Origin: a virus
Taxonomy: Duplodnaviria; Caudoviricetes
Strand: one strand, 5' to 3'
IMG/VR virus record: IMGVR_UViG_3300017971_003303
Location: 1-62,886 of that record
Length of the DNA stretch: 62,886 bases
A model generated the notes under the pieces. It had not been told where the DNA came from. It made no database searches and saw only the letters and a program-made list of their open reading frames with translations. Of this stretch, positions 7,978-31,334 are shown piece after piece. The position numbers were made by a program, and so were the translations under genes. Within the stretch, counting starts at the first letter, position 1. Each line of letters begins with the position of its first letter.

Positions 7978-9168
7978 TTATTTTATTTTTTTTAATATTT
8001 CTAGAGCTTTTTTAGCAGTATTGTTCCAAGTCCAATCTTTAACATCTGTTAAAGATTGTATACCTTTTAATTTTACTTCATTTCTATGTTCAAAACAATA
8101 CCTCATAATCTTTTTTAATTCTTCTACATTAGGAGTTGCCCACTCACATTCTTCGTAAAGAGTATCTGATGTAACAGGTTTTAATGTATATGGTATTTTC
8201 CAACTATTTCCTTCATTCATATAATCTACTTGTCCGCCAAAGTTTGTTTGTATAGTTGGTAAACCACAAGCCATAGCCTCTAATCCAGGGATATTAAAAG
8301 CATCAGCTAATTGTGCACATACATAAACATTTGTAGAGTTATATAAATTACATAAATTATTAGTATCCATGTCTTGTGCTAAAATAGTCACTTTTGATAA
8401 TGTATTAGGTAATTGTAATTTATTCATTTCAGTAAGAATATTATTAGGATGTAAGTATGCAGGATTTGTCTTTAAAATTAGTTCTACATTTTCACCTTCA
8501 TTAAATTCCTCCTTAAATGCTTTTAGAACATATCCAACACCTCCTCTATCATCATATCCACCTCTCCAACCTTTAACACATATAAATTTAAAAGTTTCAT
8601 TATTTTTAGGAGATTTTTTATCTAGAAATACAGATTGTCTTTTGTCAAAATTAGTATCTTTATTTAATGAATAAAATTTTGATAAGTCTACGCCATGTGG
8701 TACAATTTTTATTTTTCCTCTTATAGAGTAAATTAAATCACAATACTCCTTAGAATATTTGGTTTTATCATTTAAACAATCATTCATTGTAGTATATATA
8801 GCCATTCTTGTATGTTTACTAGGAACCCATATCTGACTAACTTTTTTATCCGCCAAATAAGGTATCCAATATTCAGGAATTCTTGTTCCTTCCCAAACTA
8901 AAAATCCAACAAAATGTTTTGAGTTATAAGAATTATAAGCTAACTTCCAAAAAGGTGGTGTTAATATTCCTATTGTTACATCTGGCTTCCTATAACCTTT
9001 TTGTATCATATTTAACTCTGCATCATTAACTTGTCTCATCCAATCAGAAGGTAGTTGTGATTCTAACTTTATATTATCATTGTATTTATACAGAGCATTA
9101 GTAAATTGTCTAGTATGACTAGCATAGCCAGTTGTTCCGAAAATGTTTCCTACTATATTTATTTTCAT
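7978..9168 (-). CDS. Glycosyltransferase, GT4 (GT-B fold)
   Basis: TGYASHTR, VPHGVD, DAFNIPGLEAMACGLPTI. Confidence 0.9.
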   Translation of the reverse strand: MKINIVGNIFGTTGYASHTRQFTNALYKYNDNIKLESQLPSDWMRQVNDAELNMIQKGYRKPDVTIGILTPPFWKLAYNSYNSKHFVGFLVWEGTRIPEYWIPYLADKKVSQIWVPSKHTRMAIYTTMNDCLNDKTKYSKEYCDLIYSIRGKIKIVPHGVDLSKFYSLNKDTNFDKRQSVFLDKKSPKNNETFKFICVKGWRGGYDDRGGVGYVLKAFKEEFNEGENVELILKTNPAYLHPNNILTEMNKLQLPNTLSKVTILAQDMDTNNLCNLYNSTNVYVCAQLADAFNIPGLEAMACGLPTIQTNFGGQVDYMNEGNSWKIPYTLKPVTSDTLYEECEWATPNVEELKKIMRYCFEHRNEVKLKGIQSLTDVKDWTWNNTAKKALEILKKIK

Positions 9169-9275
9169 TATCTTTTTTTAGGTTGTCCAATAGGTCCTTT
9201 TCCTTTTCCATATCCTTTTCCTTTTCCACTACCTTTACTTCTTATTTTAGACCCTGGACATGTTTTATTTGTCAT
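9168..9275 (-). CDS. 35-aa Gly/Lys-rich peptide MTNKTCPGSKIRSKGSGKGKGYGKGKGPIGQPKKR (not in ORF track)
   Basis: Manual translation; GGAGGT RBS; ATGA overlap with the upstream gene and TAATG overlap with the downstream gene. Confidence 0.7.
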   Translation of the reverse strand: MTNKTCPGSKIRSKGSGKGKGYGKGKGPIGQPKKR

Positions 9276-10111
9276 TTTAGTACCTCCTTATTATATTTTT
9301 TTAAAAAATCTCCAGTTTCTTTAAATCTTTTTTTACACCACTTCAAAAATGTTTCATTATCAATTTGTACACATTGTGAGTAATCTGGTCTTCTATTCCC
9401 ACCACTAGGTGTTTGGAGATGATATGCTATTGCCCCAGTATGTACTGCTAATTTATATCCTTTGAGAATTGCACTTAGTGAAAAAAATCCTTCCTCTCTA
9501 AATGCAACAGTAGTTAGATTATCAGGATATTTGATTTCCTTATTTATTTTAGATTTATATAGACAATTTGTTCTAAATTGATGTGTAGGTATTAATTTTG
9601 ATTCATTATAACAATATCCACATTCGTCATTTTGTTTTATTATATTTCCATCCTTATCAAATTCATGTAAATTCATTACTGGACCTAGTCTTTTTATTTG
9701 TCTTATAATTCTAGGATTGGATAATATAGGTATAAGTCCTGTAATCATATCATAACCTTTATTTATTCCTTCTAGTAATTTCTCTATATATGTTGGTTCC
9801 AAAATTACGTCATCATCTAATCTTAATGTTAATGGATTATCGAAATCGTCATCCTCAATACATTTGTTTCTAGCATAACAACATCCAAAGCTTTGGTCAA
9901 TTCTAACTATTTTAACTATATGATTTTCTAACTTTAATCTATTTACTAATGACATAAGAGGTTGACATTGTATTATTAAACCCCCACTAGCATCGTCAAT
10001 TATTATTATATCAAAATTTTGGTATGTTTGTGTTCTTAAACTTTGTAATAGTAGACATAGTTCTGTCCATCTATCACGTGTTGCAATATGTATTGTTATT
10101 CTATTATCCAT
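9272..10111 (-). CDS. Glycosyltransferase, GT2 (GT-A fold)
   Basis: ITIHIATRDR, QTYQNFDIIIIDDAS, ARN, LDDD (DxD). Confidence 0.9.
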   Translation of the reverse strand: MDNRITIHIATRDRWTELCLLLQSLRTQTYQNFDIIIIDDASGGLIIQCQPLMSLVNRLKLENHIVKIVRIDQSFGCCYARNKCIEDDDFDNPLTLRLDDDVILEPTYIEKLLEGINKGYDMITGLIPILSNPRIIRQIKRLGPVMNLHEFDKDGNIIKQNDECGYCYNESKLIPTHQFRTNCLYKSKINKEIKYPDNLTTVAFREEGFFSLSAILKGYKLAVHTGAIAYHLQTPSGGNRRPDYSQCVQIDNETFLKWCKKRFKETGDFLKKYNKEVLK

Positions 10112-10982
10112 TATAAAATTGTCTCCCTTTATCTATATACTTTTTCCAAGCAGATGTATTTTTTTTATAAAAATCTACCATTATATCTATACCATCAATT
10201 ATACTAACTTTTGGTTTAAACCCTTTATTTTGTATATCTGTTATATCTACATTTACATTCTGTGGTTGTGCCTTTTCTTCTGGTAATACTTTTATTTTTG
10301 ATTTTGATTTTGTCTTTTGTATGATGTAATTAGCTAACGCTATAAGTTTTACTTCTTCATCACCACTAATGTTATAAATTTTATTCCATTCTCCTTTCAT
10401 ACTTAATATTACTCCATCTACAAAATCGTCAATGTATGTGAAATCAAGTGTTTTTTCATCATCACCGTACAATCTTATGTCCTCATTTTTGAATGAAGCA
10501 CATAACCAGTTATTTATTAATCTAGATGTTTCATCAAACATAGGACCGTAAACTGTTGATGGTCTAATAATAATATATTTTAATCCATAACAATTAGCAT
10601 AAGCTTTTGTTAGTTCCTCAGTATATATCTTACTAGCTACATATGGATTCCTTTCTTTACTGAGAACTCTTGATGTTGATGCAACAATTATTTTTGGTAT
10701 TTTGTTTCTTTTACAAAATTCTAGTACAGCTAGTATACCATCAACATTATTTTTATGAGGTAAAAAAGGATTACTAATTGCCTCATTAATTTTACATTGT
10801 GCTGCAAAATGAAAAAATACATCTATTTTGTCCTTTATTTTATACTCCTTAAACATTAAATCGGATATATCAAAACCTTCCCTTTTATCTATTGCCATTA
10901 CACATTTATGACCTTCTTTGTCTAGTCTTTCTTTTAGGAATGTACCTATTAAACCCTTATTTCCTGTTATTGCGTAATTCAT
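10104..10982 (-). CDS. NAD-dependent nucleotide-sugar epimerase/dehydratase (extended SDR)
   Basis: TGNKGLIG, HFAA, YVASK catalytic motif, RPSTVYGP, DFTYIDD. Confidence 0.9.
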   Translation of the reverse strand: MNYAITGNKGLIGTFLKERLDKEGHKCVMAIDKREGFDISDLMFKEYKIKDKIDVFFHFAAQCKINEAISNPFLPHKNNVDGILAVLEFCKRNKIPKIIVASTSRVLSKERNPYVASKIYTEELTKAYANCYGLKYIIIRPSTVYGPMFDETSRLINNWLCASFKNEDIRLYGDDEKTLDFTYIDDFVDGVILSMKGEWNKIYNISGDEEVKLIALANYIIQKTKSKSKIKVLPEEKAQPQNVNVDITDIQNKGFKPKVSIIDGIDIMVDFYKKNTSAWKKYIDKGRQFYNG

Positions 10983-11362
10983 TTTAAATCTGATGCATGT
11001 ATTTTATATTTAAGTGGTATTATCATTATTTTTCCTCCATAACTCTCTACGTATTTTTTTTCTTGTTGATTTATAGTGTTCATATTATAATCTCCTCCTT
11101 TGACATAGATATCTGGTTTTAATTCTATTATTTTTTTTAGATGGTTTTCCGAAATTATGACTTTATCTACATAACTTATACTCTCTATAATTTCTTTTCT
11201 TTGTTGTTGTGTGAATACAGGTTTCCTCTTTTTTTCTCTTATAAATTGTTTATCAGATGTTATGCTTACTATGAGATATCCTAATTTTTTTGCTTCCTTT
11301 AAATATTGAATATGTCCAGGATGTATTATATCAAAACATCCACAAGTAAATACACTCTTCAT
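10979..11362 (-). CDS. hldC: Heptose-1-phosphate nucleotidyltransferase-like (HldC / RfaE domain II; cytidylyltransferase superfamily)
   Basis: GCFDIIHPGH, KPDIYVKGGDY; adjacent to an HldA-type kinase. Confidence 0.75.
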   Translation of the reverse strand: MKSVFTCGCFDIIHPGHIQYLKEAKKLGYLIVSITSDKQFIREKKRKPVFTQQQRKEIIESISYVDKVIISENHLKKIIELKPDIYVKGGDYNMNTINQQEKKYVESYGGKIMIIPLKYKIHASDLK

Positions 11363-12201
11363 GGTCCTAGTTCCTCCCCACTAACTTGATACTGACCTCT
11401 ATGTGCACAAACTATTCCAGCAGCTTTATTTGCGTAAGGTATAGACTCATCCAAACTATATCCTTTACTTAACATAAGAGTTAATACACTAACAACCATA
11501 TCTCCTGCTCCTAAGACATCATAAACTTCTATTGCATTTGTCGGGAAATGCTTAGAATAGTTACGTCTAAATAATGTCATACCATTCCTACCTTGAGTAA
11601 CTATCACATTTTCAGACATTAATAATAGTGATTGTGCTATCTTTTCTAATTCACTTTCACCTGTTAAATTAATTGCTTCTTTTATTGTTGGCGTTAAAAT
11701 ATAGGAACCAGTATAATCTAATTTTTTTGGGTCAACAATAAGTGGTACATCTAACTTTAAAAGCCCTTCAAAAAATCTTTGTGTTATATCTCCTTTAGCA
11801 TAGTCCGAAACTACAATAAATTTTGGTGCTAATTCTCTAATATCACTTAACATGTTATCTATATATTCGTTTTTGTGTATAACTTCATCGTCTAGTCTTA
11901 ATATACCATTTACTCTAGTCTTATGTGTTGTTTTTGGTCTTTCATATAAAAATGCAGGAACTCTATTACTGTCAAGTAATTGTCTTACGATATCACCAGC
12001 ATTATCATTACCAATTGTACCAAATAAACATACATCCCCTCCGAGTGTTTTTATATTATTTGCTACATTAGCAGAAGCACCTAATTGATTTACTGTTTCT
12101 TCTATTCCAATAACAGGCACTTCCTCATTACCAATTTTAGTATACGGACCATTAACTTGTGTATCCAAAATTATATCTCCAACTACTACAATATTACTCA
12201 T
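11359..12201 (-). CDS. hldA: Heptose-7-phosphate kinase (HldA / RfaE domain I, PfkB family)
   Basis: VVGDIILD, ANVANNI, KTR, RLD.E, SDYAKG, VDPK, DVLGAGD. Confidence 0.88.
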   Translation of the reverse strand: MSNIVVVGDIILDTQVNGPYTKIGNEEVPVIGIEETVNQLGASANVANNIKTLGGDVCLFGTIGNDNAGDIVRQLLDSNRVPAFLYERPKTTHKTRVNGILRLDDEVIHKNEYIDNMLSDIRELAPKFIVVSDYAKGDITQRFFEGLLKLDVPLIVDPKKLDYTGSYILTPTIKEAINLTGESELEKIAQSLLLMSENVIVTQGRNGMTLFRRNYSKHFPTNAIEVYDVLGAGDMVVSVLTLMLSKGYSLDESIPYANKAAGIVCAHRGQYQVSGEELGP

Positions 12202-12731
12202 TTTAAAATCATATAAGCTATATTTACATTCTTTACAGTGTAAATTTCCTTACCCCTTTCAATTAATTCATTAATATATTTCTTTACATATGGACTATCA
12301 ATATAATCATGCCATACTATAACTTTTGGATTTAATTTAAATGCAAACTCAGTATCACCTTTAACATCATCATAAAAGTGTTCACCATCAATAAATACTA
12401 AATCGTAATTCTCATTATCTTGTATAATGTAATTCCTACTATTACATATCTTTATTTTAGCATTGGTTTTCCTACAATAGACACCTGTAGTTTTATCTTC
12501 ATTAAAATCATTGGTATCTTTGTCTATACTTTTTATATTAGTTATATTAGGATGTAACCACATTAACAATGTAGCATAACCTAGCCAAGTTCCTATTTCA
12601 AAAACAGACTTTAATTTATATTTGTTTATAAGTTCTATTAAAACTATATGTTCAGGTTTTTTACTAGTCCATTCATCTTTTGGATGTGGATACTTTTGAT
12701 AGAACCATTCAACGTATTTTTTGGATTTCAT
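12198..12731 (-). CDS. Class I SAM methyltransferase (Methyltransf_24-like)
   Basis: FEIGTWLGY, DLVFIDGEH, VWHDY. Confidence 0.85.
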   Translation of the reverse strand: MKSKKYVEWFYQKYPHPKDEWTSKKPEHIVLIELINKYKLKSVFEIGTWLGYATLLMWLHPNITNIKSIDKDTNDFNEDKTTGVYCRKTNAKIKICNSRNYIIQDNENYDLVFIDGEHFYDDVKGDTEFAFKLNPKVIVWHDYIDSPYVKKYINELIERGKEIYTVKNVNIAYMILK

Positions 12732-13203
12732 TTTTGGGAGCTTTCTTTAAGTACATAAATACTGGTCTTTTATGTTTAAACATATTCCTTGTCATTCGTA
12801 AAGTTTCTTTAATTGACTCTGGTTTTAGTAATTCAATTTTGAGTGCCTTACATAGTAAATCTAAATTACTAGTTACATGTGTTGGTCCTAAATCTGGATA
12901 ATCACCATAACTAACTAATTTAACATTTTGTTTTTGTTGCATAATGTTTAATTTAATAGATTCATAGGGTCTTTCTAAAAGAAATGGTGTAATTGTATAA
13001 ACTATTGGTATAAATCCTTCTTGAGCCATACCAGCAGCCATACCAATTGTCGCTTGTTCCGCAATACCAGTATTTATTAAATGGTCTGGTGTTTCTTCTT
13101 TTAACGTATTAAAAACGCCAAAACCTATATCTGCACATAAGACATAAATCCTAGGATTTTTTTTAATCAATTCAACCATTAATTTTCCAAACGAATATCT
13201 CAT
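12709..13203 (-). CDS. Transketolase, pyrimidine-binding subunit (split enzyme)
   Basis: INTGIAEQATIGMAAGMA, RPYESIK, GPTH. Confidence 0.9.
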   Translation of the reverse strand: MRYSFGKLMVELIKKNPRIYVLCADIGFGVFNTLKEETPDHLINTGIAEQATIGMAAGMAQEGFIPIVYTITPFLLERPYESIKLNIMQQKQNVKLVSYGDYPDLGPTHVTSNLDLLCKALKIELLKPESIKETLRMTRNMFKHKRPVFMYLKKAPKNEIQKIR

Positions 13204-13928
13204 TTTAAATATTTTAATGCCTCCTCCATTACTTCTGGTCTTTCATGTAAGTAAATTACATGATATGTAGGATTTTTATGTAGGAATGGAATACCATAAC
13301 CTTTAATAGTATCAAAAATAACTACATTTAAACCTTTTTTTAATTTTTTCATTTTTGAAAGTCCTTTTATTGTATGTCCATTAGCTCTAGTTACATTATA
13401 TCCAAATGCTTCAAACTTTTTTTTCATTGTTTTATAGTCTTCATTCATTATTTTTTTAATAGAGTCTATCGCTTGATACTTGTTCCAATCCACCAAAATT
13501 ATCAAATTATCTATATTAAACTTATTTGCTATATTAAGACATTCCCAAATCATTCCCTCTTGCAATTCACCATCGCCAATTAAACAATAAACTTTAGTAT
13601 TGTCCTTTTTTAAATATTTTCTTGCATATGCTCTTCCTAAAGCTATAGATAATCCATGACCTAAAGAACCACCAGTAGCCATTATTCCTTGTTTCTCATT
13701 GTACTCAATATGAATTGTCCATGGTGGTTTTATTCCCTTAGTTTCTAAAACTACATGTAATGCAGGTGCACCATGACCTTTACTCATTATAAAAATGTCG
13801 TCCTCCTTCTTAACATTATCATATAAATATTTAACTATATCTACACAAGACATACTACTTCCATAATGCCCATGTTTTCTTTTAAATCCTTCAGTAATAA
13901 TTCTCCTTCTTAAATTTTTATTTAGCAT
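13200..13928 (-). CDS. Transketolase, N-terminal ThDP-binding subunit
   Basis: GHYGSSMS, SKGHG, GSLGHGL, GDGELQEG, TIKGYG. Confidence 0.92.
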   Translation of the reverse strand: MLNKNLRRRIITEGFKRKHGHYGSSMSCVDIVKYLYDNVKKEDDIFIMSKGHGAPALHVVLETKGIKPPWTIHIEYNEKQGIMATGGSLGHGLSIALGRAYARKYLKKDNTKVYCLIGDGELQEGMIWECLNIANKFNIDNLIILVDWNKYQAIDSIKKIMNEDYKTMKKKFEAFGYNVTRANGHTIKGLSKMKKLKKGLNVVIFDTIKGYGIPFLHKNPTYHVIYLHERPEVMEEALKYLK

Positions 13929-13952
13929 TTTGTCCTCCTTTCATTGATAGTT

Positions 13953-15032
13953 TCATATAAAATTAACTCCACTAGGTTTATGTATATAATCCCATATAAA
14001 TTCGTTTATTTTATCATGTCTACAACAACCAGCACATTCTTTATGTACATTAAAATTATTAATCATTCTATCAACAATTTTCCAATATCTATCACTTTTT
14101 AATATTTCACCTAAACTTTGTTCGTTCAAATCTCCATAACAAAATTCTTCATTTCCAAATAAATAACCACATGGGTAACATTTACCATTACCACTAACTT
14201 GAAATAATAATGGTACATCTACACATCTATCATATGGTCTACGTTTACCTATTTTCATAAATTCCCATTTTACTACTATTGACGTATCATTAGTTGACAT
14301 TGATTCACACTTTTTTAGTACTTCAATTATTTCTGGTTTTTCATAGTCATTAACATCAAAAGATACATCACAAACGCTATTATCATCAGGTAAACTACAT
14401 TGCTTTATTAGAAAATAATCTACACCTAAATTAATTGCCAACTTACTTTCTTCAATCATTTCTTTGTCCATTAATCCCGGAACATAAACTGCTTGTAATC
14501 CTATATCACAAGTATATCCTTTTTTCCTCTTGATTTCTACTGCTCTTCTTATATTTTTAACTACTATATCAAACGCAGGTATTCTGTGTATTTTTCTATA
14601 ACCCTCACTAGTTCCTGCTGACAAATTAAATCTCATCCAAGTACAATTTCTCAATACGCAATCTATTTTTTCATCTGTATTTAATAGTACTCCATTAGTT
14701 GAAAAGGCCATATCCAATCCACCTTTTTTTCCTAAATTCATTGCATCGTAAATATGTGGATTTAATGTTGGTTCACCATCGCCTATAATTTCTATTGCCT
14801 TTACACCTAGCTTAGGAGCATCTTTAAATAATTTTAATAGCGGTTTTCTATCTATACTTGAACGTTGGTCTTTACCTTGAAATGTTCCATAACAATAAAT
14901 ACAATTAGCATTACACATTTTAGTGGCACCAATATTAATCAATAATGGTGCAACCTTTTTTCCTTTATCATAGTAATCTATAACTCTATCCATATGCCAA
15001 AGTATCTTAGTACTATCCATTAATCTTTTCAT
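13953..15032 (-). CDS. Radical SAM protein with SPASM/twitch domain
   Basis: CNANCIYC, GDGEPTL, C-terminal C...GKCYPC...GDL...CAGC; start placed at ATG 15032. Confidence 0.88.
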   Translation of the reverse strand: MKRLMDSTKILWHMDRVIDYYDKGKKVAPLLINIGATKMCNANCIYCYGTFQGKDQRSSIDRKPLLKLFKDAPKLGVKAIEIIGDGEPTLNPHIYDAMNLGKKGGLDMAFSTNGVLLNTDEKIDCVLRNCTWMRFNLSAGTSEGYRKIHRIPAFDIVVKNIRRAVEIKRKKGYTCDIGLQAVYVPGLMDKEMIEESKLAINLGVDYFLIKQCSLPDDNSVCDVSFDVNDYEKPEIIEVLKKCESMSTNDTSIVVKWEFMKIGKRRPYDRCVDVPLLFQVSGNGKCYPCGYLFGNEEFCYGDLNEQSLGEILKSDRYWKIVDRMINNFNVHKECAGCCRHDKINEFIWDYIHKPSGVNFI

Positions 15033-15627
15033 TATATAAACCTGTAAACCTCCCTTTAGTGTCACAAAATTTTAACCATTCCTCTAAACTTAAATAATCT
15101 ACAGAACTAACCCATCCCATTTTTTCCGCTCTCCATGGTTTAATTGGCCTAGCATATTCATTACAAGGTATTTTCCATTTTCTCCCATACTCTAATTCCA
15201 AGTATTTTTCAACTGGTTTAGGAACTTTAAATTCTTTACCTTTAAATTCTACTACATCAAATTCTTTTATGAATGGTTCAATATCCTCTGTAAATTGGAA
15301 CCAAACATCTAATAGAATACCATACTTATAAAAATGATGGTTAAGTTCCCATCCTGGATTTTTAAAATATGGTCCAGCTTTAAATCCATTTTTCATTAAA
15401 GCATCAAATAATTTTATTAAATTGTCTCTACTCGTTTTTACACCTATATCTAAATCTATTATCTTACCATTATCCCCAAATTTTTCTGTGTTACCATCCC
15501 TATAAATTGTTAAACATGTACCAAATACTAAAAAGAATTCTATATCTAATTTGTCACAAATTTCCTTAAACTCAAATAAGGATGTATAATCCAAATTTTC
15601 TACTTGTGGTTTTAGTTTTGGTTTCAT
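15013..15627 (-). CDS. LicD-family nucleotidyl/phosphotransferase
   Basis: FFLVFGTCL..YRD, DLDIG, LDVW, YLELEYG..WKIP. Confidence 0.8.
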   Translation of the reverse strand: MKPKLKPQVENLDYTSLFEFKEICDKLDIEFFLVFGTCLTIYRDGNTEKFGDNGKIIDLDIGVKTSRDNLIKLFDALMKNGFKAGPYFKNPGWELNHHFYKYGILLDVWFQFTEDIEPFIKEFDVVEFKGKEFKVPKPVEKYLELEYGRKWKIPCNEYARPIKPWRAEKMGWVSSVDYLSLEEWLKFCDTKGRFTGLYNEKING

Positions 15628-16364
15628 TTTTTGCCTGTTATAATACTAATTTTTAAATCTATAAAGCAATCGTTATCTGTAACAACCATATTGTAGTCTT
15701 TCTTGAAATAATCTTTTGCATTGACATGTAAATTATAAATTCTGTCTTTTTCTTTTTGTGACAAAACATGATTTTTTAACCATTTCTTTATACTAAATTT
15801 TTTTATAGTTATATTTTTAACTTTTATATTTTTAAATCCACTTCTTTTCATAAGTTTTACTAAATCATCATCGTAACAAACAACTCTATCCAATTTATTT
15901 TTAAAGATATTTTTAAAATCTGATTTTACTCTTTTTGAAGGTGGGACTCCTTCAACTATAATTATTGTACCACCTTTCTTAAGTGTTTTATAGCATATAT
16001 CCATTGCCTTTTGTTGTTTTGATACAATGTAATGGAAAACATATCTACATGTAATTTTATCAAAACTATTTTCAATAAATATGTCATTAAGTATATCATT
16101 ATTTATATATAAAATATTATTCATTGGTTTACATTTAAAAATCATATCACTAGATTTATCAATACCTACAACTTGTTTCACTTTGTTGGCTACAAGATTC
16201 GATATTATTCCTGTACCAGAACCTACATCCAAAACAATGTCATTTTTATTAAATTTTCCAATACTCAGAATTGATTTTAAAACTGATTTATTCTTTGTTC
16301 TTTGTTTATCATCATAATTTTCCGCTCTACTCTTCCAATAGTTTTTAGATGTTTTAATTGTCAT
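15624..16364 (-). CDS. Class I SAM methyltransferase
   Basis: VLDVGSGTG, GIDKS, FD.ITCRYVFH, LKKGG. Confidence 0.9.
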   Translation of the reverse strand: MTIKTSKNYWKSRAENYDDKQRTKNKSVLKSILSIGKFNKNDIVLDVGSGTGIISNLVANKVKQVVGIDKSSDMIFKCKPMNNILYINNDILNDIFIENSFDKITCRYVFHYIVSKQQKAMDICYKTLKKGGTIIIVEGVPPSKRVKSDFKNIFKNKLDRVVCYDDDLVKLMKRSGFKNIKVKNITIKKFSIKKWLKNHVLSQKEKDRIYNLHVNAKDYFKKDYNMVVTDNDCFIDLKISIITGKK

Positions 16365-17076
16365 GTTTCATAGCCTCTTTAATTTTATTAATATCTATAT
16401 TCTTTTGTGTTTGTTCATAAATTATAGTTGACATTTGACCATGTTTTACTTCTTCATCACTATAAATGAATTTATGATTTTCATCACTATCAAAATAACC
16501 CCAATTAACTGACCTATGGTCTATAACATTACCTTCAATGTAAAAAAATAATCCAATACCTTCTCCCACAGCTATAAAATAAGGTTCTAAACTATACTGT
16601 CTTAGTCTTGGATATACATAATAACCTAATGTACGAACAATTTTTCCGGATACCACTTCTGCATTAGGATAGCTTCTACCATCAATCCCTTTACAATAAG
16701 ATATTCCCCAACCATTATTTTTGTCTAATGGGTCCAACATTAACTTGTCCCAACCCTTAATTAAATAATAATGGTCATCGTTTATATTTTGATAATAAGG
16801 TATATTAGGATATACATTTGTTGATATATAATTTAAAGCGTCTACCATAAAAAACTTATCATCTCCATAAATGACATTTCTTCCTTTTAACACTTTTTTA
16901 TACTCTTTTAAATATGGGTCGCCAGTCCAAACATAGAAAATAATTTCTGTTCCATCCGATTTTGTCTTGTCAAATGATTCTAATAACTCTACTACTTTAT
17001 GAGGTCTTTTTCTAGTACAGCATATCGAAAGTAATTTAGCTTCCTTTACTTTGTTATCATTAACTTGTATTTCCAT
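16354..17076 (-). CDS. Putative glycosyltransferase (GT-A fold)
   Basis: TRKRP, NDD motif followed by GWD; within the glycan cluster. Confidence 0.6.
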   Translation of the reverse strand: MEIQVNDNKVKEAKLLSICCTRKRPHKVVELLESFDKTKSDGTEIIFYVWTGDPYLKEYKKVLKGRNVIYGDDKFFMVDALNYISTNVYPNIPYYQNINDDHYYLIKGWDKLMLDPLDKNNGWGISYCKGIDGRSYPNAEVVSGKIVRTLGYYVYPRLRQYSLEPYFIAVGEGIGLFFYIEGNVIDHRSVNWGYFDSDENHKFIYSDEEVKHGQMSTIIYEQTQKNIDINKIKEAMKHDN

Positions 17077-18058
17077 TTTTATTATAATAATTTAATATGT
17101 CTTTCTTTATTTTTTCCAAGTTATTTTCTTTTGCATTATACAATCTCCATAGTGATTTGTCTTTTGTAATAGCATTAAAAAACCATGTTCTTTCCCACCT
17201 TGGATGATTACAAATAGTTAACTTATCCTTTTGTTGCTGGTATAATTTTATAGATGTAAAACCACTATCATTACCTAACATAACTTTACATTTATCTATT
17301 AAGTAAGCCATTTCCTCAAAGTATAAAATATTGTCCCCCATTAAATTGATAAATTTTCCTTTGTAACTTCCATCATCAACCCCCATTAATATAGGTTTTA
17401 TGTCATTGGAATTACAAAATTCTATTATGTCATTAAAGAAATTATCACCTTCTTTATGTGCATCTCCTTCTTCTTTCTTCCTCACATGTATTAATACATG
17501 TTTTTTATTAGTTTTTAATATGTCATCTATGAACTCTCTTATTATTCTAGTAGGTTTAAATACAAAAGTATTTCTATCATTACTAACTCTTACATACTTA
17601 TTTTTATCCCAGTCCCACATTAATATACATTCAGTACATAGAGCATCTATGAATAATGTTTTTTCGTCTACATTTTGTCCTACAAATTTTCTTAGTAGTG
17701 GGGGCCTCCAAAACATAAATTCATCTAAAAATTTATTTGCTTCTTCCTGACTCAACTCTTCTGTTGTATCGTCAAATATTTCTCCATTTTTATCTAACCA
17801 AAAGTCTCTATTAAGTGATGGTGATATTTCTATGACATTTGGAGTTAATTTTCTTATCATATCTAATGACATCCTCTCTATTGTATGAGGATAATTCCTA
17901 AAATAATATACACTATCAGTAAACACTATAGTATTGAATTTTGAAATTTTGTATTCCTCCTGTATTTTCTTAGTAGCACAAATTGCAGGCCAAACATCAC
18001 CAAGTCCACCCCTAATGTATACTACCATCTTATCTATTTTATTTTTATCCAAATCCAT
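17060..18058 (-). CDS. GT9-like glycosyltransferase (ADP-heptose heptosyltransferase family)
   Basis: N-terminal RGGLGD and C-terminal LIDKCKVMLGNDSG, both GT9-type signatures. Confidence 0.7.
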   Translation of the reverse strand: MDLDKNKIDKMVVYIRGGLGDVWPAICATKKIQEEYKISKFNTIVFTDSVYYFRNYPHTIERMSLDMIRKLTPNVIEISPSLNRDFWLDKNGEIFDDTTEELSQEEANKFLDEFMFWRPPLLRKFVGQNVDEKTLFIDALCTECILMWDWDKNKYVRVSNDRNTFVFKPTRIIREFIDDILKTNKKHVLIHVRKKEEGDAHKEGDNFFNDIIEFCNSNDIKPILMGVDDGSYKGKFINLMGDNILYFEEMAYLIDKCKVMLGNDSGFTSIKLYQQQKDKLTICNHPRWERTWFFNAITKDKSLWRLYNAKENNLEKIKKDILNYYNKNGNTS

Positions 18059-18740
18059 TCATTCCCTCCCATTTTTTTATTACTATTTTACTCTCATCTT
18101 CCTCTAACCATGTTGTTTCTTGTTCTGCTAAATCTTTAAAGCCTAATGTTTTATACAATTTTCTTTTTTCTTGTCTCAATTTTTTTGTCATATGACCGTA
18201 ATGATGTATTGGTACAAAATATATGTCTCCTGATTTACAATTATGAGGTATGGACGACCCATGAATATCCATTTCATTAAATTTAAAATGTGAAAGTACT
18301 TTATATATTTTATGGACTAATCTAGCATGTTTTAAATTTCCATCCATGTCTTTTACCATTACATAGTGATTTTTATCTCCTCTCATTTCAAATAATGGAC
18401 AACCAATACTTTCGTCCCTCCAATTTAATAGGATACTTAAAAATTCGTTCTTATTTATTTCTGGTACATGTTCATCTATATCTAAATTCCATATCCATTG
18501 ACAATTTTCCTCCCTTGCCATTTGTAATATTTTTTGATAATCTCTACTTTGATTTCTAGGAAGGTTTTGTACAAGATACCTTTTAGTATACTTATGATTA
18601 ATCAATTTTTGTCTTACTTCTTCATCTGCTCCATTATCCACAACAAATACGTCATTTACAGGTAATATCTCTAAGTTACTTAACCATTCATCTATAAATT
18701 GTTTTCCTCCTTTGACTACTAATCCTATTCCTATTTTCAT
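18045..18740 (-). CDS. Glycosyltransferase, GT2-like
   Basis: VVDNGAD, WIWNLDIDE, IHHYG. Confidence 0.8.
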   Translation of the reverse strand: MKIGIGLVVKGGKQFIDEWLSNLEILPVNDVFVVDNGADEEVRQKLINHKYTKRYLVQNLPRNQSRDYQKILQMAREENCQWIWNLDIDEHVPEINKNEFLSILLNWRDESIGCPLFEMRGDKNHYVMVKDMDGNLKHARLVHKIYKVLSHFKFNEMDIHGSSIPHNCKSGDIYFVPIHHYGHMTKKLRQEKRKLYKTLGFKDLAEQETTWLEEDESKIVIKKWEGMNGFG

Positions 18741-20002
18741 TTTGATTCACCTATTAATATTTGATTGTTGTACATCCAATTACTAGGGCTATCTGTAATT
18801 TTAAAATATTTTGTTAATTTACTTAACCACCAATCTTTACTTCTTTTAATTTTATGTGTAGGGTCTGCATGTAAATTAGGATTACCTTCAAAAGGTATGG
18901 AGAAAATAAAACTATTAGCTTTATTATAAATGGATTTTAAAACATTATCTAATTTGTCCTCATCAACGTGTTCCAATATATCTATACATAAAATTAAATC
19001 CCATGTATCATTATGTATTGTTTTATTATTAAATTTTGTTATGTCACTAACTTCTATATTTATATCATATGGACTATTTTTAGTTGCCCACTCACTTTTA
19101 TCAATACCTAAATACGTACATCCAAAAAATTCTTGAAATACATATCCATAATGTCCCACACCACAACCCAAATCCAAAACAGATTTTGGTTTAAACTTTT
19201 TATACCATTCGTTTACCATTAAAAAATGTTTTGTTTCTATACTTTTCCTATTCATGAAATATATTTCGTCCCTATCAATTCCAAAATTATTCAAAATAAC
19301 ATCAGGAATCTCCAAAATATTAAATTGTTTTTTAGGATACATACCAAAAATATGACCAAAGTACCAGTTCCTTAAATAATCTTTAGTATGCATATTTGAT
19401 TTTTTTGTATGATTTTTATATTTTTTATTTATATTAAAAACATTTGATATATAAGATAAATGCCATATTGTACCTGACTGTATTTGTCCAGATAATTTAT
19501 TACTTTCAGTTGATTGTAGTATTGGATGTTCAACTTCTGGATAAAATAAATCCTCTGTAACTTTGAATAATCTATGTGGGACAAAATGTATATCATGTGT
19601 TGAATCTTCATGTCCTAAGTCACCAATAAAATGTCTCATTCTTACACTCCATAATATTTTGTGTTGATTTTTTGGTACATTATTTATGAACGTTCTTATA
19701 TCGTCTAATTTATCAATAACTTCGTCTGCATCAAGAACTAAACACCACCAACCCAAATAATTCTCTTTAATATAGTCTAAATAAAAGTTTCTTTGTTTAC
19801 CATTCATTCCTAAGTCTTCTTGATTATAATTTTGAAATATCGGTTGTACATTTTGTTCAAAATTTGAAACTATAACATTAGTATCATCAGTACTTCCACC
19901 ATCACAATAAACTATGTCATCAGCATCTTTAACTGATTCTAAAGACATACCAATAAATTTTTCACAATTTTGTCCCATAATAACGACTACGAGTTTTTCC
20001 AT
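18737..20002 (-). CDS. GT2 glycosyltransferase fused to a SAM methyltransferase
   Basis: DGGSTDDT, LVLDADE, VEH; C-terminal VLDLGCGVG, DILEHV, DPTH. Confidence 0.88.
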   Translation of the reverse strand: MEKLVVVIMGQNCEKFIGMSLESVKDADDIVYCDGGSTDDTNVIVSNFEQNVQPIFQNYNQEDLGMNGKQRNFYLDYIKENYLGWWCLVLDADEVIDKLDDIRTFINNVPKNQHKILWSVRMRHFIGDLGHEDSTHDIHFVPHRLFKVTEDLFYPEVEHPILQSTESNKLSGQIQSGTIWHLSYISNVFNINKKYKNHTKKSNMHTKDYLRNWYFGHIFGMYPKKQFNILEIPDVILNNFGIDRDEIYFMNRKSIETKHFLMVNEWYKKFKPKSVLDLGCGVGHYGYVFQEFFGCTYLGIDKSEWATKNSPYDINIEVSDITKFNNKTIHNDTWDLILCIDILEHVDEDKLDNVLKSIYNKANSFIFSIPFEGNPNLHADPTHKIKRSKDWWLSKLTKYFKITDSPSNWMYNNQILIGESK

Positions 20003-21207
20003 TGTTCCTCCGCAATGTTTCTAACATCTTCAATTTGTTGTGCTGACATACCATTGGTTCTATGAAATGCTTTTGGTGGTTTTTTTCCTGCTTCCAAATA
20101 TTTAGTATAGTCTCTATCTAATATTTCAATCCCGAATTCCTGTGGTTGTCTCCAAATAGGTGTTCCTGGGAAAGGTGTCATGATATAAAAATCTGCACTC
20201 GTTAAGCCTTCTTGTTTTAATCCTAATGCAAAATTTATGGTACGAGTAGCATCAGCGAGTGTTTCATTTGGGAGTCCAAACATAAAGAATCCCTTTGATT
20301 TTATTCTATATTTTGTAAGAGTCCTAACAGCATTTAAATTGTCTTGTGTTGTCATTCTTTTACTAACATCATCTAACCTTTCGTCTACACCACTCTCAAT
20401 ACCTAAACTAACCCAGGAACATCCAGCTTGTGATAAATTTCTTACTAAATCATCATCTAACATATTTGCTCTTGTAGTTAATCTAAATCTTATATCTTCA
20501 TCTCCTATTTTATCTAGTAGTCCTAATGTTCTTCGTCTATTAGTAGTAAATGCATCATCCAAAAAGTAAATATCTCTAAAACCATATTCTTTTAATTGTC
20601 TAATATCTCTTGTAACATAGTCATCAGTGTGATATCTAACTCTTCTATTCATATTACCACAAAATATACATCCATTGGCACATCCTCTACTAGTTATAGA
20701 TGTACTAGCTTTTCTTCCATCTTGTCTAAATGTATAATCAGCCATGTTAACAAATTCTCTTCCTGGTATTGCCATCCTTCTCAAATTAGTAGGATTTGGT
20801 GTGACTACTTTATTTGGTAGACCATGTTTAATCATTACAGGGGTAATTTCTTCACCTTCACCTACTACAACAGTATTAAAATAAGGAGATAATGTTTGTG
20901 GCATAGCTGTTGCATGATATCCTCCAGCTATAGTTCTAATACCTCTACTAGCACACATTTGACCAAGTCTTACTGCTTCTGGATAAACAGGTGATGTATA
21001 AACACTCACACCAACATATTCAGGTGTTTTATTATCTAATTCATATACTAATCTTTCCATACTACAATGGTCCATATCTCTTACTCTTACTTTAATACCA
21101 GCTTCTTTTAAACTACTAGCTATTGACAATAAACCTATTGGAGGTCTATCACCTGCATTAGTTAGTATATCTCTACTACTTGGATTTATTAACATTACAT
21201 CTGACAT
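19987..21207 (-). CDS. B12-binding radical SAM enzyme (class B methyltransferase-like)
   Basis: PPIGLLSIAS, GGYHAT, VGEGE, TSRGCANGCIFC, GIESG, PFPGT. Confidence 0.92.
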   Translation of the reverse strand: MSDVMLINPSSRDILTNAGDRPPIGLLSIASSLKEAGIKVRVRDMDHCSMERLVYELDNKTPEYVGVSVYTSPVYPEAVRLGQMCASRGIRTIAGGYHATAMPQTLSPYFNTVVVGEGEEITPVMIKHGLPNKVVTPNPTNLRRMAIPGREFVNMADYTFRQDGRKASTSITSRGCANGCIFCGNMNRRVRYHTDDYVTRDIRQLKEYGFRDIYFLDDAFTTNRRRTLGLLDKIGDEDIRFRLTTRANMLDDDLVRNLSQAGCSWVSLGIESGVDERLDDVSKRMTTQDNLNAVRTLTKYRIKSKGFFMFGLPNETLADATRTINFALGLKQEGLTSADFYIMTPFPGTPIWRQPQEFGIEILDRDYTKYLEAGKKPPKAFHRTNGMSAQQIEDVRNIAEEQWKNS

Positions 21208-22364
21208 TTTTTAATCAACCCATCCCATTGTTTTATAACAGTATTCCATGTATAATTTTTCTTAACCTTTTCAACACCCCTTCTTCCTAATGTTTGTCTT
21301 AATCTTTTATCATTATATAATACTTCTAGAGCTTCTGCTGCTTTGTCTATATCCATAACACCTCTCTCCACATTCCAACTTCCTGTTAAATCTGTCACGA
21401 TAGGAACAGGAATACCACATTGTCCATCGTCCATCAGTAGTTCTTGAGTTGTAGTGAAATCAGTAACTACAGAAGGAATACCAGCACCAGCAGCCTCTAT
21501 AGTTGGTACACCAAATCCTTCGCCTGATGTAGACAAGAAAAATACATCCATAAGATTATATATTTCATTCATATCCTCATAATTAAACCCCTTATAAAAA
21601 CTCATACCACTCCATATTACTCTATTTTGTATGCCCAATCTTTTTACTAGCTCCATGCTATCAAAAACAGCGGCTCCATCATATGGGTCAGAGTGACAAA
21701 ATAAAACTACGTCTTGATGATTTTTAGCAAACTTAGCAAAAGCTTTAAACATTCTATCCGGCATTTTTCTTCCTTGATTTCTATAAACACTTCCTACTAC
21801 AAACTTATCGTGTAAATTCCATTTTTGTTTTATTAATAATCTTTGAGAATTTGTTAATGGTTTGTATACTGAAGTATCAATAGCATGTGGAATATAATGT
21901 GAATTAATATTATATAAATCATGTGCTTGTTTTTGTGCAAATTTACTCATAGCTACTGGTACGTTACATTTTCTTAAAATACCATCACATCTTAATGGTA
22001 AACCCCCTTCACCATCTGAAGGATAGTAAAAAATAGTTTTTGCAGGAGCATAATCTAATTGCATGTACCAAGGATATAACATAAATGTATCTAATAACAC
22101 TCCAAAGAAATCTGGTTTTAATTCTCTTATCCTTGGAACTAGTAAATCCTTTGAGTAAGGTTCTTTTCCTGTGCCCATAGTGGTAAATTTTAGTTCTCTT
22201 CCATCCTCAAACTTAACATAAGGTATATTTTGTCCAACGTAGTTATGACCTTGATAATAACATTCATGTCCTAAATCTGTCAAACCATTTAATATATTAC
22301 TAGAAATTGTTGCAAATCCAGTACAAGTAAACGGGCTATCTGACAACCACATAATTTTTGCCAT
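21195..22364 (-). CDS. Glycosyltransferase, GT4
   Basis: SDSP..TGFA, IPHAID, RNQGRK, EGFGVPTIEAAGAGIP. Confidence 0.92.
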   Translation of the reverse strand: MAKIMWLSDSPFTCTGFATISSNILNGLTDLGHECYYQGHNYVGQNIPYVKFEDGRELKFTTMGTGKEPYSKDLLVPRIRELKPDFFGVLLDTFMLYPWYMQLDYAPAKTIFYYPSDGEGGLPLRCDGILRKCNVPVAMSKFAQKQAHDLYNINSHYIPHAIDTSVYKPLTNSQRLLIKQKWNLHDKFVVGSVYRNQGRKMPDRMFKAFAKFAKNHQDVVLFCHSDPYDGAAVFDSMELVKRLGIQNRVIWSGMSFYKGFNYEDMNEIYNLMDVFFLSTSGEGFGVPTIEAAGAGIPSVVTDFTTTQELLMDDGQCGIPVPIVTDLTGSWNVERGVMDIDKAAEALEVLYNDKRLRQTLGRRGVEKVKKNYTWNTVIKQWDGLIKKCQM

Positions 22365-22600
22365 TATACAATAACTTTTATAGGTTCCTCCTTCTTAATA
22401 TGTCCACATCCACTTTCTAAAATTATAGAAGTACCACTTGTCCTTATACTAAAAAAACAATTGTGATATTCAAAAGCAATTTCTTTAGGAATTGTCATTC
22501 CATAAACATCACCAGTTTTATTATTAGTCACTAATTTCCTTAATTTCCTAAATAATGACGGACTTCTTCTAAAATTAAATACCCTCTCATCTGTAACCAT
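22364..22600 (-). CDS. Putative AbrB/SpoVT-like DNA-binding protein heading the glycan cluster
   Basis: RKL...YGMTIPKEIA swapped-hairpin pattern. Confidence 0.5.
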   Translation of the reverse strand: MVTDERVFNFRRSPSLFRKLRKLVTNNKTGDVYGMTIPKEIAFEYHNCFFSIRTSGTSIILESGCGHIKKEEPIKVIV

Positions 22601-22627
22601 AAGCACTCTTTTTATTAAATTATATAA

Positions 22628-22888
22628 TTATAAGACTTTATAAATCTTTTGTTTTCCATTACTTTTGAGCAATATCAACATATCCATAATTCTTTCTTTG
22701 TCTTCTTGTAATTTTGTAAATGGGTTATGTCCATTAGCATAATTAATATTAAATGCAATAACTCTATTTATACTTTTCAATCTTCTTTCTAATCCTTTCT
22801 GTAGTTTTAACTTTTGTTCACTAGACATTGTTTTTATTCTCTTCCTCAGTTTTTTCAAGGTTAAGTTATTATATGGTCTAATTTTCAT
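22628..22888 (-). CDS. Basic hypothetical protein
   Basis: ATGA overlap with the primase stop. Confidence 0.5.
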   Translation of the reverse strand: MKIRPYNNLTLKKLRKRIKTMSSEQKLKLQKGLERRLKSINRVIAFNINYANGHNPFTKLQEDKERIMDMLILLKSNGKQKIYKVL

Positions 22889-23856
22889 TTATATATATCC
22901 TTTCCGTAAAACTGGCACTTCCCTACACATAATCCATCTTGGATAATTTTTTCACATTTCGGAAATACAATATCATGTCTATCGTATATATATTGTAGCT
23001 GTTTTTCCTCTTTAATACAATGATAAAACTTCCTATCAGATAAACACCTCTTTAGTGTATCTGCCGCTTCCTCTATTAAAAATCCCCTTTCCCTAAGATA
23101 TAAAATAAGTAAGTATCTCTCTTTCCAACCAGCATCAGGTGTATTTATAATTCTCCTTACACAATCAGGACAATTTTCTATTACTCTTTCCTCAATCATA
23201 TTTTTATTAACTTCTAAATCTACACAAAATTTAAAATCTAATCTTGGTTTACTATCAAATTGACTAATATTAAATAATTCTTTTCCAATAAAAATATTTT
23301 TAACAAAATTTTGTCTATTCGCTAATCTCCTAATATAGTGATTTCCTCTTTCCAACTGGTCTTGATTTAAAGGAATACAGAATCTTCCTGCTATTGGATG
23401 GTATGTATTAGGAATCCTGGCAAGTTGTGCAGTATTACCAATAACTTGTGGGTCAACAATCAATTTAAGTTTATCTATAAAATATTTTTGTGCTTGTTTT
23501 ATAGCATGTCTTTTATATTTTAATCTTGCTTGTTTACAATGAACATATAAATGATATCCTCTTCCTGACATAACTACAGAATGTTTTAAATTTTTCTCTT
23601 CACAAAATCTATGCAATTTTATCATGTTGAAATGAGCATCACAACTCTTATCATCAAAATCAAAATATATTTTATCTATTACTGCACTATCATAATCAGG
23701 TTTGAAGTTCTCTTTAATTTTTTTAAACCAATATATTGATGAATATATAGCTTTCTTTTTACCATTATGAACGTTAATATAATTCAAATACTCCTTTAAA
23801 TTATATACTGTCTTACGAGGTGGTCCTACTTCACGAGGGAATCGATTGAATAACAT
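22885..23856 (-). CDS. Archaeo-eukaryotic primase, PriS catalytic domain fused to a PriL-like Fe-S C-terminal domain
   Basis: YFDFD, SGRGYH, RIPNT; C-terminal CPDC...R..L..YL...C...C cluster. Confidence 0.85.
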   Translation of the reverse strand: MLFNRFPREVGPPRKTVYNLKEYLNYINVHNGKKKAIYSSIYWFKKIKENFKPDYDSAVIDKIYFDFDDKSCDAHFNMIKLHRFCEEKNLKHSVVMSGRGYHLYVHCKQARLKYKRHAIKQAQKYFIDKLKLIVDPQVIGNTAQLARIPNTYHPIAGRFCIPLNQDQLERGNHYIRRLANRQNFVKNIFIGKELFNISQFDSKPRLDFKFCVDLEVNKNMIEERVIENCPDCVRRIINTPDAGWKERYLLILYLRERGFLIEEAADTLKRCLSDRKFYHCIKEEKQLQYIYDRHDIVFPKCEKIIQDGLCVGKCQFYGKDIYK

Positions 23857-30468: not shown

Positions 30469-30472
30469 TTAA

Positions 30473-31167: not shown

Positions 31168-31334
31168 ATTCCTTTAGTTAATGCCACTATGAATGTCCAA
31201 ATTATAGCCATTATGATATATATTGTTATCTCAACAGGGTAAATCCATAAGAAATGCCAAAAAGACATAAACCCCTCTCCATTAATAGCTAAAAATACAA
31301 GATTAACTACTAGTAATATTGTTGCTATCATCAT
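31152..31334 (-). CDS. Small membrane protein
   Basis: Two hydrophobic segments; GGAGG RBS. Confidence 0.5.
   Translation of the reverse strand: MMIATILLVVNLVFLAINGEGFMSFWHFLWIYPVEITIYIIMAIIWTFIVALTKGIWESV

Follow-up and report, generated by a model that had tools for sequence, protein, structure and literature searches.

What would a tailed virus build with a single operon of sugar enzymes that takes up 23% of its genome? This question is raised by the virus record IMGVR_UViG_3300017971_003303, whose 62,886 bases, the complete record (CheckV 100%), were analysed as one stretch of DNA (the window). An initial annotation had read positions 7978-22600 as the best candidate for an undescribed system by which an archaeal tailed virus makes nucleoside diphosphate (NDP)-heptose from central metabolites and builds a decorated glycan with it. 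In this study, we found that the window carries what its gene content indicates to be a real, unusually large virus-encoded glycan operon of archaeal type. We lean towards the reading that this late-type operon of soluble enzymes builds and heavily tailors an oligosaccharide, that it combines a conserved core with a heptose cassette, and that its transketolase-like enzyme would rather branch a sugar. Every chemical step of this reading we infer from gene content, best family matches, predicted fold and the pattern of conservation.

The operon occupies 7978-22606 on the minus strand and consists of 18 consecutive open reading frames (ORFs), of which 17 are enzyme genes and one is a small ORF. 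It spans ~14.6 kb, and its junctions are overlaps of 1-53 bases or gaps of 24 and 103 bases. From the head of the operon to its final gene, with glycosyltransferase (GT) families given by number, the ORFs are as follows.

22364-22606, minus strand: small ORF of 80 amino acids at the operon head, without a Pfam match; homologues stand in the same place in five related loci (L002, L003, L008, L016, L026)
21195-22364, minus strand: GT4 (PF00534, 3.6e-14), with copies 61-70% identical in 6 related loci
19987-21207, minus strand: B12-binding radical SAM enzyme (PF04055 and PF02310)
18737-20002, minus strand: GT2 (PF00535, residues 6-136) fused to a SAM methyltransferase (Methyltransf_23, residues 268-369), conserved in 13 loci
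18045-18740, minus strand: GT2-like protein (PF13704, E 1.7e-4, under cut-off), conserved in 20 of 27 loci
17060-18058, minus strand: divergent GT9-like protein of GT-B type (P0001), assigned by AlphaFold2 (AF2), Foldseek and a weak PF01075 signal
16354-17076, minus strand: viral GT-A/GT2-like protein (P0002), without a Pfam match; nearest to viral 'glycosyltransferase' atlas clusters
15624-16364, minus strand: class I SAM methyltransferase (Methyltransf_11 and Methyltransf_25, ~5e-15)
15013-15627, minus strand: LicD/FKTN-like phosphotransferase (P0004; PF04991, E 0.0017, under cut-off); the nearest atlas clusters carry LicD
13953-15065, minus strand: radical SAM/SPASM enzyme (PF04055 and PF13186), conserved in 11 of 27 loci
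13200-13928, minus strand: PP-domain subunit of a transketolase-like thiamine diphosphate (ThDP) enzyme (PF00456, Transketolase_N, 3.7e-21)
12709-13203, minus strand: Pyr-domain subunit of the same enzyme, 164 amino acids (PF02779, Transket_pyr, alone)
12198-12731, minus strand: Methyltransf_24-type (O-)methyltransferase (PF13578, 7e-7), with homologues in 5 loci
11359-12201, minus strand: HldA-like PfkB sugar-phosphate kinase (PF00294, 1.5e-31; best model TIGR02198)
10979-11362, minus strand: HldC-like nucleotidyltransferase (CTP_transf_like; best model TIGR02199)
10104-10982, minus strand: extended short-chain dehydrogenase/reductase (SDR) of the NDP-sugar epimerase/reductase type (PF01370, 2.7e-33)
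9272-10111, minus strand: GT2 (PF00535, 5e-14)
7978-9168, minus strand: GT4, the final gene of the array (PF00534, 9.8e-9)

Every gene named by the initial annotation was found where it had been placed, and its description of a tightly coupled operon given over to glycan building and taking about a quarter of the genome agrees with these figures. Its count of two GT4 and four GT2-like genes also stands, the fourth GT2-like gene (16354-17076) resting on atlas clusters with no Pfam family. Language-model features and the predicted structure of this protein led to viral GT-A/GT2-like clusters (TM 0.79-0.89), one of which is 86% PF00535. The gene list was short of two radical SAM enzymes, three stand-alone methyltransferases, the methyltransferase fused to GT2, the LicD-like gene and the small ORF, which is perhaps a regulator. 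The best NCBIfam models for the B12-binding radical SAM protein were of the BchE (the top name), ladderane, PhpK and AprD4 types, all under cut-off, and the protein is likely to be a C-methylase or a rearranging enzyme. None of the operon proteins has a hydrophobic segment, and the genome scan showed no polytopic membrane protein, so the virus would lack an oligosaccharyltransferase, a flippase and a polyprenol-phosphate transferase of the usual kinds.

We investigated which of these genes are shared with related viruses. Searches with the GT9-like protein retrieved 27 related loci, mostly short fragments. A core was common to at least 27 related viral loci and comprised GT4, B12-radical SAM, GT2-methyltransferase, GT2, GT9-like GT-B, radical SAM/SPASM, split ThDP enzyme, methyltransferase, SDR, GT2 and GT4 genes. 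One relative, G001 (IMGVR_UViG_3300033141_004453; 55,936 bases, 93% complete), is collinear with the window and has a capsid protein 82% identical. Its operon retains 13 of the 18 ORFs at 39-74% identity (66% for the SDR) and has no kinase, nucleotidyltransferase, LicD-like gene, GT-A-like gene or one of the methyltransferases; a different radical SAM gene stands at the hldA/hldC position. The kinase was found in none of the 27 loci and an HldC-like gene in five. These results indicate that the heptose genes hldA and hldC form an accessory cassette within a conserved operon core. An HNH endonuclease gene was also seen inside the glycan operon of L008 (7652-8053), between the nucleotidyltransferase and GT2-methyltransferase genes.

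The tailed-virus genes of the window are a large terminase (TerL), a fusion of portal and minor head protein, a protease/scaffold, an HK97-type major capsid protein (MCP) and a family B polymerase (PolB). Among 50,697 phage records, the MCP matched solely two haloarchaeal tailed viruses, HGTV-1 and HFTV1. TerL was 37.8% identical to that of Halogranum tailed virus 1 (HGTV-1) and at most 27% identical to those of bacterial phages, and the top bit scores of PolB came from the haloarchaeal viruses HVTV-1 and HCTV-5. The genome also has a PCNA gene and a weak signal of an archaeo-eukaryotic primase. Because MCP, TerL and PolB are closest to those of archaeal viruses and PCNA is encoded, the sequence points to a tailed virus (Caudoviricetes) of archaeal type, in agreement with the initial annotation. 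The genome G+C content of ~29-31% fits haloarchaea poorly, and a host search of species genomes gave no relative of the GT9-like profile or of the MCP pair. The same markers bear on another explanation, by which the window would be a bacteriophage of a low-GC Gram-negative host whose ordinary lipopolysaccharide (LPS) or capsule auxiliary genes alter the host surface. Cyanophages with annotated heptose kinase and nucleotidyltransferase genes are in keeping with it, as is a cave-pool 'phage' contig whose similar gene mix is taken as LPS genes in its published description; the nearest named kinase homologues, a mixture of archaeal and bacterial genomes, also leave room for it. Set against the exclusively haloarchaeal matches of the MCP, the distances of TerL, the PolB scores, the PCNA gene and the primase signal, this explanation is highly unlikely. 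Proteins encoded in the operon and in the gmhA island recur on 3-4 contigs, the longest of 63,035 bases, and the layout is therefore independent of any single assembly.

Three enzymes of the window have heptose families as their best matches, as in the GmhA-HldE(HldA+HldC)-GmhB-HldD route of Gram-negative bacteria. The third lies outside the operon.

53901-54452, plus strand: GmhA-like sedoheptulose-7-phosphate isomerase (best family TIGR00441)

The kinase scored 212.6 bits on TIGR02198 (rfaE_dom_I; cut-off 345), its best family, and 69 on the next, ribokinase, and it keeps the GAGD anion-hole motif (VLGAGD). One of its 66 homologues was 54% identical and the remainder were at most 39%. All 16 that carry names are heptose-7-phosphate kinase, HldE or RfaE, one of them from a Woesearchaeota metagenome-assembled genome (MAG); the nearest named ones come from a mixture of archaeal and bacterial MAGs. 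A single-sequence kinase query retrieved no viral relative. The nucleotidyltransferase scored 117 bits on TIGR02199 (rfaE_dom_II; cut-off 181.5) and gave a full-length PDB match to 5x9q. Its relatives in sister loci scored 85-168.5 bits on the same model, the top value being that of the L017 orthologue. The kinase and nucleotidyltransferase genes adjoin and share a 4-base overlap, much as the two domains of HldE are joined. The GmhA-like protein scored 87.6 bits on TIGR00441 (cut-off 209.45) against 41.8 on the DiaA model, and its 15 PDB matches were 12 phosphoheptose isomerases, one 'putative' isomerase and two DiaA proteins. Aligned to 5ltz, it keeps a His near the N-terminal site, the Ser-rich SxSGxS phosphate loop and the C-terminal His; these and a Glu position are presumably the active-site residues of GmhA. 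The set of GmhA, HldA-like and HldC-like enzymes named by the initial annotation is thus borne out by best family.

The SDR, which had been cast in the role of HldD, did not follow. It scored 37.5 bits on the heptose epimerase model TIGR02197 (heptose_epim; cut-off 274.6) against 104 on the dTDP-glucose dehydratase model, and none of its 33 PDB matches at E<=1e-10 was an HldD structure, the best being 4-epimerases. Its copy in G001 stands in an operon without hldA and hldC. By these comparisons the SDR is not HldD-like. Its active-site stretch reads STS...YxxxK, and 4,6-dehydratases presumably have TDE where this protein has STS. The heptose reading is therefore partly supported, for gmhA, hldA and hldC alone. 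We are fairly confident in a heptose-nucleotide branch, which on these family matches is plausible and incomplete. It differs from the Gram-negative ADP-heptose pathway in having neither GmhB nor an HldD-like epimerase, in scores under the equivalog cut-offs, in the degenerate C-terminal motif of the nucleotidyltransferase, in the distance of 42 kb between gmhA and the other two genes, and in standing in a viral genome of archaeal type.

The initial annotation had left open that the HldC-like protein might group with TagD-type enzymes. A corresponding alternative has no heptose nucleotide at all: a cytidylyltransferase would supply the LicD-like transferase with an activated phosphate of an alditol, of glycerol or of another compound, possibly derived from a transketolase-made ketose phosphate that the SDR reduces, and the PfkB kinase and the SIS protein would act on other sugars. 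A LicD-like gene is indeed present in the operon, and in L003 its homologue directly adjoins the HldC-like nucleotidyltransferase gene. PDB scores leave HldC (67.7 bits), ECT (71.2) and TagD (62.5) unseparated, the C-terminal motif is atypical, and HldC-like genes occur without a kinase in five loci. The NCBIfam heptose models are clearly ahead for both proteins, with 117 bits against 68 on the TagD model for the nucleotidyltransferase (168.5 bits on the heptose model in L017), and the HldE-like overlap of the two genes and the GmhA-like gene in the same genome also speak for heptose. This alternative is distinctly unlikely.

The transketolase-like pair stands apart from the cassette. For the PP subunit the best PDB match was 6yak, the N-terminal chain of a split transketolase, and the GDG...EG..WE motif is kept. 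The best match of the Pyr subunit was 6yaj, over residues 36-193 of 341, so that the C-terminal transketolase domain is missing. The best NCBIfam scores of the two were 134 and 50.5 bits against a cut-off of 488. We compared the occupants of this position, which adjoins the radical SAM/SPASM gene, among the loci.

Window, L002, L005, L009 and L026: transketolase-like pair
L008 10950-12840 and L016 8707-11005: acetolactate synthase (ALS)-like N half and M/C half, then a DJ-1/PfpI gene
L017 956-4967: pyruvate dehydrogenase (PDH) E1 alpha-like protein and truncated E1 beta-like protein

All three enzyme types are split and trimmed to their catalytic domains. In L017 the region also has a flavodoxin/WrbA-like gene and a second radical SAM gene. 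Since three enzyme classes with only ThDP chemistry in common fill one slot, a role in central metabolism is hard to reconcile with the pattern. The exchange of transketolase-, ALS- and PDH-E1-like occupants argues for a two-carbon (C2) branching or extension on a sugar and against the supply of sedoheptulose-7-phosphate (S7P). We therefore prefer, by analogy, that the pair, possibly with the SDR, would transfer a C2 unit onto a sugar intermediate.

Published work on YerE and AviB1/AviB2 describes ThDP enzymes that attach C2 branches to keto-sugars, after which a reductase acts (YerE/YerF). The window resembles these systems in having a ThDP enzyme within a glycan cluster and an SDR of the NAD(P)H type nearby, and the slots of sister loci hold an enzyme of the ALS/YerE type or a two-subunit E1 type. 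It differs in that its own enzyme belongs, by sequence, to the transketolase class. AviB1 and AviB2 presumably resemble PDH E1 alpha and beta, and we know of no branching example among transketolase-class enzymes. Bacterial split transketolases in the phage collection had catabolic surroundings, or stood on fragments without annotation that share just the transketolase genes, and were uninformative on function. A phosphonate pathway was considered from a Fom1-like PDB match, the PhpK-like radical SAM scores and the split TPP_N/TPP_C genes of L008, and was rejected since the window has no phosphoenolpyruvate (PEP) mutase.

These observations bear on the model first proposed for the locus. In that model the split transketolase makes S7P, and GmhA, HldA, HldC, the SDR in the role of HldD and a GmhB that is missing convert it to ADP-L-glycero-D-manno-heptose for transfer by the GT9-like enzyme. 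All of its named genes are present, and the transketolase-like subunits agree with a true split transketolase in the ThDP motif, in the context of the catalytic Glu (GIAEQ) and at the His, Arg and Lys positions; a supply of S7P might also be useful to a host without a pentose-phosphate shunt. G001, however, retains the transketolase-like pair and the SDR with 66-74% identity in an operon that has neither hldA nor hldC, and the ALS-like and E1-like enzymes that take the slot in other relatives would be unable to make S7P. With the SDR scoring far from HldD and the transketolase lacking its C-terminal domain, we consider this full model unlikely, and the feeder role assigned to the transketolase is likewise not supported.

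The GT9-like protein (P0001) was examined by its fold. At E<=0.01 it had no Pfam match, and PDB sequence and profile searches gave matches at chance level. An AF2 model, made from an alignment of 41 sequences after exclusion of 3 short homologues, reached pLDDT 91.4 and pTM 0.90. In a Foldseek search of the PDB, ranks 1-4 were all GT9 enzymes (3tov, WaaF 1psw and WaaC 2h1h; E 1.8e-9 to 1.3e-5, TM 0.48-0.53), followed by the protein heptosyltransferase TibC. Against PF01075 the protein scored 13.4 bits, under the gathering score of 22; PF01075 was nevertheless the commonest weak match of the family, in 23 of 41 members (best E 0.001) compared with 5 of 41 for the next family. This weak signal falls at the GNDSG region, and the N-terminal G-D and C-terminal N-D-S-G columns of the family are invariant or nearly so. 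A family profile found 45 proteins at E<=0.001 among 1.84 billion representatives. Of these, 33 were scanned against PF01075 (12 short or close ones were excluded), and four distant ones matched, with P0161 (E 1.1e-4) passing at 42.1 bits. Outside the window, one member of the family was found in IMG/VR and 26 in metagenome contigs, and searches of the phage records and species genomes yielded none. The protein thus resembles GT9 (WaaC, WaaF, TibC; PF01075) in its GT-B fold, its top matches and its recurrent PF01075 signal, and differs in staying under the Pfam cut-off, in a TM of only 0.48-0.53 and in its small family of 45 representatives. From the modelled fold and the profile matches, we place it in the GT9 superfamily as a divergent branch that is so far restricted to viruses, and the GT9-like assignment of 17060-18058 in the initial annotation holds.

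Taken together, the preferred reading would run as follows. GmhA would convert S7P to heptose-7-phosphate, the HldA-like kinase would form heptose-1,7-bisphosphate, and a phosphatase not encoded by the virus, of the host or otherwise, would yield heptose-1-phosphate. The HldC-like nucleotidyltransferase would then make an NDP-heptose, the nucleotide most likely being ADP, and the GT9-like transferase would be the likeliest enzyme to use it. The transketolase-like enzyme, probably with the SDR, would add or move a two-carbon unit on a sugar intermediate, which would thereby become branched or extended. Decoration of the sugars would then fall to the methyltransferases and radical SAM enzymes.

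Several observations weigh against this scheme. The GmhA-like protein, the kinase and the nucleotidyltransferase all score under the NCBI curated (equivalog) cut-offs. No GmhB (TIGR00213) or HAD-IIIA match was found at E<=1 in the whole 62,886-base record, as the initial annotation had also reported for a HAD-type GmhB. That annotation had noted as well that the nucleotidyltransferase C-terminus (KIHASDLK) lacks the usual STT: in our alignment IHASD replaces a Ser/Thr triplet (mostly STT, STS or SSS) that is shared by all 11 HldE C-terminal domains and by all six of the other viral homologues, and the protein stops four residues on, so the enzyme may be weak or use another substrate. The GmhA-like protein carries an Asp in place of a Glu of the aligned B. 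pseudomallei enzyme. The LicD-like gene would require a CDP-activated donor. No kinase is visible in the five relatives with an HldC-like gene; as the loci are mostly short, such absences are weak evidence. The GT9-like gene occurs in relatives that show no heptose genes, so that it may use a donor other than heptose. Position and analogy are the grounds for giving the transketolase-like pair a branching role; in the 6yak and 6yaj alignments its ThDP-binding and several sugar-phosphate-contact residues are those of true transketolases, which leaves room for S7P supply. No 4,6-dehydratase for making a keto-sugar acceptor was identified.

Why gmhA lies among head genes was addressed with 80 further related loci (L036-L115), which were retrieved via the capsid protein. 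None of the 80 has gmhA (tblastn, E<=1e-5), and the protease/scaffold gene is present in 70. In 37 loci that span it, the interval upstream of the protease/scaffold gene measured from -144 to 4,407 bases, being below 400 in 21 and at least 879 in 16; the same interval in the window (50466-54452) is ~4 kb. The site of the gene, flanked by conserved small head-module genes on one side and by the protease/scaffold gene on the other, is therefore one of variable insertion. Since all 80 loci lack gmhA and the gap varies, we regard it as the cargo of an insertion hot spot and not as one of the head genes. The initial annotation was correct that gmhA lies within the head module, and its phrase 'among head genes' is to be understood in this sense. 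gmhA was likewise not found in G001, an absence which is unusable because the contig ends fall exactly at the syntenic spot. Hot-spot cargo in L040, L049 and L077 includes ORFs rich in N-X-S/T sequons.

A short repeat stands before the operon and before four structural gene blocks.

22615-22629, minus strand: 15-nt TATA-like element AATTATATAATTTAA, just upstream of the first ORF of the operon

The window has 5 copies of AATTATATAATTTAA where 0 are expected. The others lie at 42965, 46492, 54451 and 60289 on the plus strand, before late or structural gene blocks that start near 43148, 46545 (portal), 54502 (protease) and 60386. gmhA ends one base short of the fourth copy (54451), and three copies extend to an identical 26-mer. 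The word repeated most often in G001 is a palindromic 13-mer related to it, with one copy upstream of the operon at 28431. The copies resemble what we take to be archaeal TATA boxes and may be late promoters. If so, the operon would be turned on along with the gmhA unit and the structural genes.

We next considered what the glycan may be attached to. The initial annotation had argued that Archaea have no LPS, so that the acceptor should be viral protein or the host surface. This premise was too narrow, since Thermoplasma N-glycans contain D-glycero-D-galacto-heptose according to the published account. Three proteins of the window, each with an N-terminal hydrophobic segment, are enriched in sequons.

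50761-52254, plus strand: 497-amino-acid protein, segment from residue 4; 37 sequons against 12.8 +/- 3.1 in shuffled sequences (0 of 300 reach the observed number)
877-4365, plus strand: 1162-amino-acid fibre-like protein with a LamG/ConA-like domain (PF13385); 68 sequons against 27.1 +/- 4.2 shuffled (0 of 300)
52212-53489, plus strand: 425-amino-acid ORF; 13 sequons against 6.6 shuffled (1 of 300)

Across all the genes, the mean density is 1.14 sequons per 100 residues. The numbers of the three proteins are inflated by internal repeats; the 497-amino-acid ORF, which lies three genes upstream of gmhA, has five repeats of 19-21 residues with two sequons each. No sequon-rich ORF was found in G001 (ORFs of at least 150 amino acids), and three were found in three other loci, each at the same hot spot. 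Sequon richness is therefore not a family trait, and the 497- and 1162-amino-acid proteins are candidate acceptors as a lead only. The 425-amino-acid ORF was also tried as an RmlC-like protein and rejected: all 9 of its PDB matches were RmlC, with E values of 0.07-0.73, it had only 4 homologues, and its AF2 model had a pLDDT of 57.1. It looks beta-rich with an N-terminal helix.

How new is such a system? The kinase matches 35 phage records. Synechococcus phage S-CAM1 carries together a nucleotidyltransferase (41% identity over 97 amino acids), a PfkB kinase (27%) and an annotated ADP-heptose 6-epimerase. In an unrelated low-GC IMG/VR virus (L031, 2550-6570), an HldC/TagD-like nucleotidyltransferase, an unknown 354-amino-acid ORF, an SDR, an HddA-like GHMP heptose kinase and GmhA are contiguous. 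A phage contig from a cave pool has been published whose glycosyltransferases, HldE and 'BchE' gene are interpreted there as LPS and chlorophyll genes. The S-CAM1 cassette and the cave-pool contig precede the present case, and the claim of an undescribed system was overstated for the heptose part. The groups in S-CAM1 and L031 are short auxiliary sets in bacterial phages or use a GHMP kinase, whereas the window, a virus of archaeal type, has its cassette in an 18-ORF operon alongside seven transferases, a ThDP enzyme and two radical SAM enzymes.

The literature searched (supplements excluded) gave no description of a heptose pathway in archaeal viruses. In the archaeal-virus surveys examined, the term 'heptose' was absent and glycosyltransferases were treated in general terms only. 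The most original parts of the locus are the ThDP slot and the virus-specific GT9 branch.

Chloroviruses, mimiviruses and mycobacteriophages with virion glycosylation have their own sugar-nucleotide enzymes and several transferases. The present virus differs from these in the domain of its host, in its set of radical SAM, ThDP and GT9-like enzymes and in the heptose branch.

The remaining neighbourhood has features of its own. Immediately upstream of the operon (22885-24562, minus strand) there are two genes, one for a PD-(D/E)XK nuclease and one for a protein that gave a weak signal of a primase small subunit (E 0.0017), and both also adjoin the operon in relatives. A 7-deazaguanine gene set follows at 26808-32043 on the minus strand, with PCNA (29758-30468) in its midst.

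26808-27962, minus strand: weak TGT/DpdA-like protein
28546-29187, minus strand: QueC
29184-29768, minus strand: GTP cyclohydrolase I
31429-32043, minus strand: QueE-like radical SAM protein

These genes suggest that the virus modifies its DNA. A lone tRNA-Met (CAT) gene at 40329-40400 (plus strand) was the sole Rfam or ARAGORN match in the window.

A further-reaching version of the preferred reading can be formulated, which we hold to be rather unlikely in its entirety. In this version, the virus would make a heptose-containing, multiply methylated, C2-branched glycan in the host cytoplasm by means of the virus-specific GT9 branch and a ThDP 'branching slot' filled on three separate occasions in evolution, under the same type of late promoter as the structural genes. 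It would thereby glycosylate its own sequon-rich, signal-bearing fibre or surface proteins or rewrite the host N-glycan. If true, this would be virus-run protein glycosylation in Archaea, with a transketolase-class sugar-branching enzyme without a described counterpart.

Giant viruses and some phages are known to encode glycan synthesis, which is scarcely described for archaeal viruses. The locus is also a caution against calling such metagenome genes 'LPS' or 'chlorophyll (BchE)' auxiliary genes. The operon offers a compact candidate set of enzymes for unusual sugars, which may include a heptose nucleotide, C-methylated sugars and possibly branched ones. It also offers a virus-restricted relative of the heptosyltransferases and a natural experiment in which three classes of ThDP enzyme appear to fill one pathway slot.

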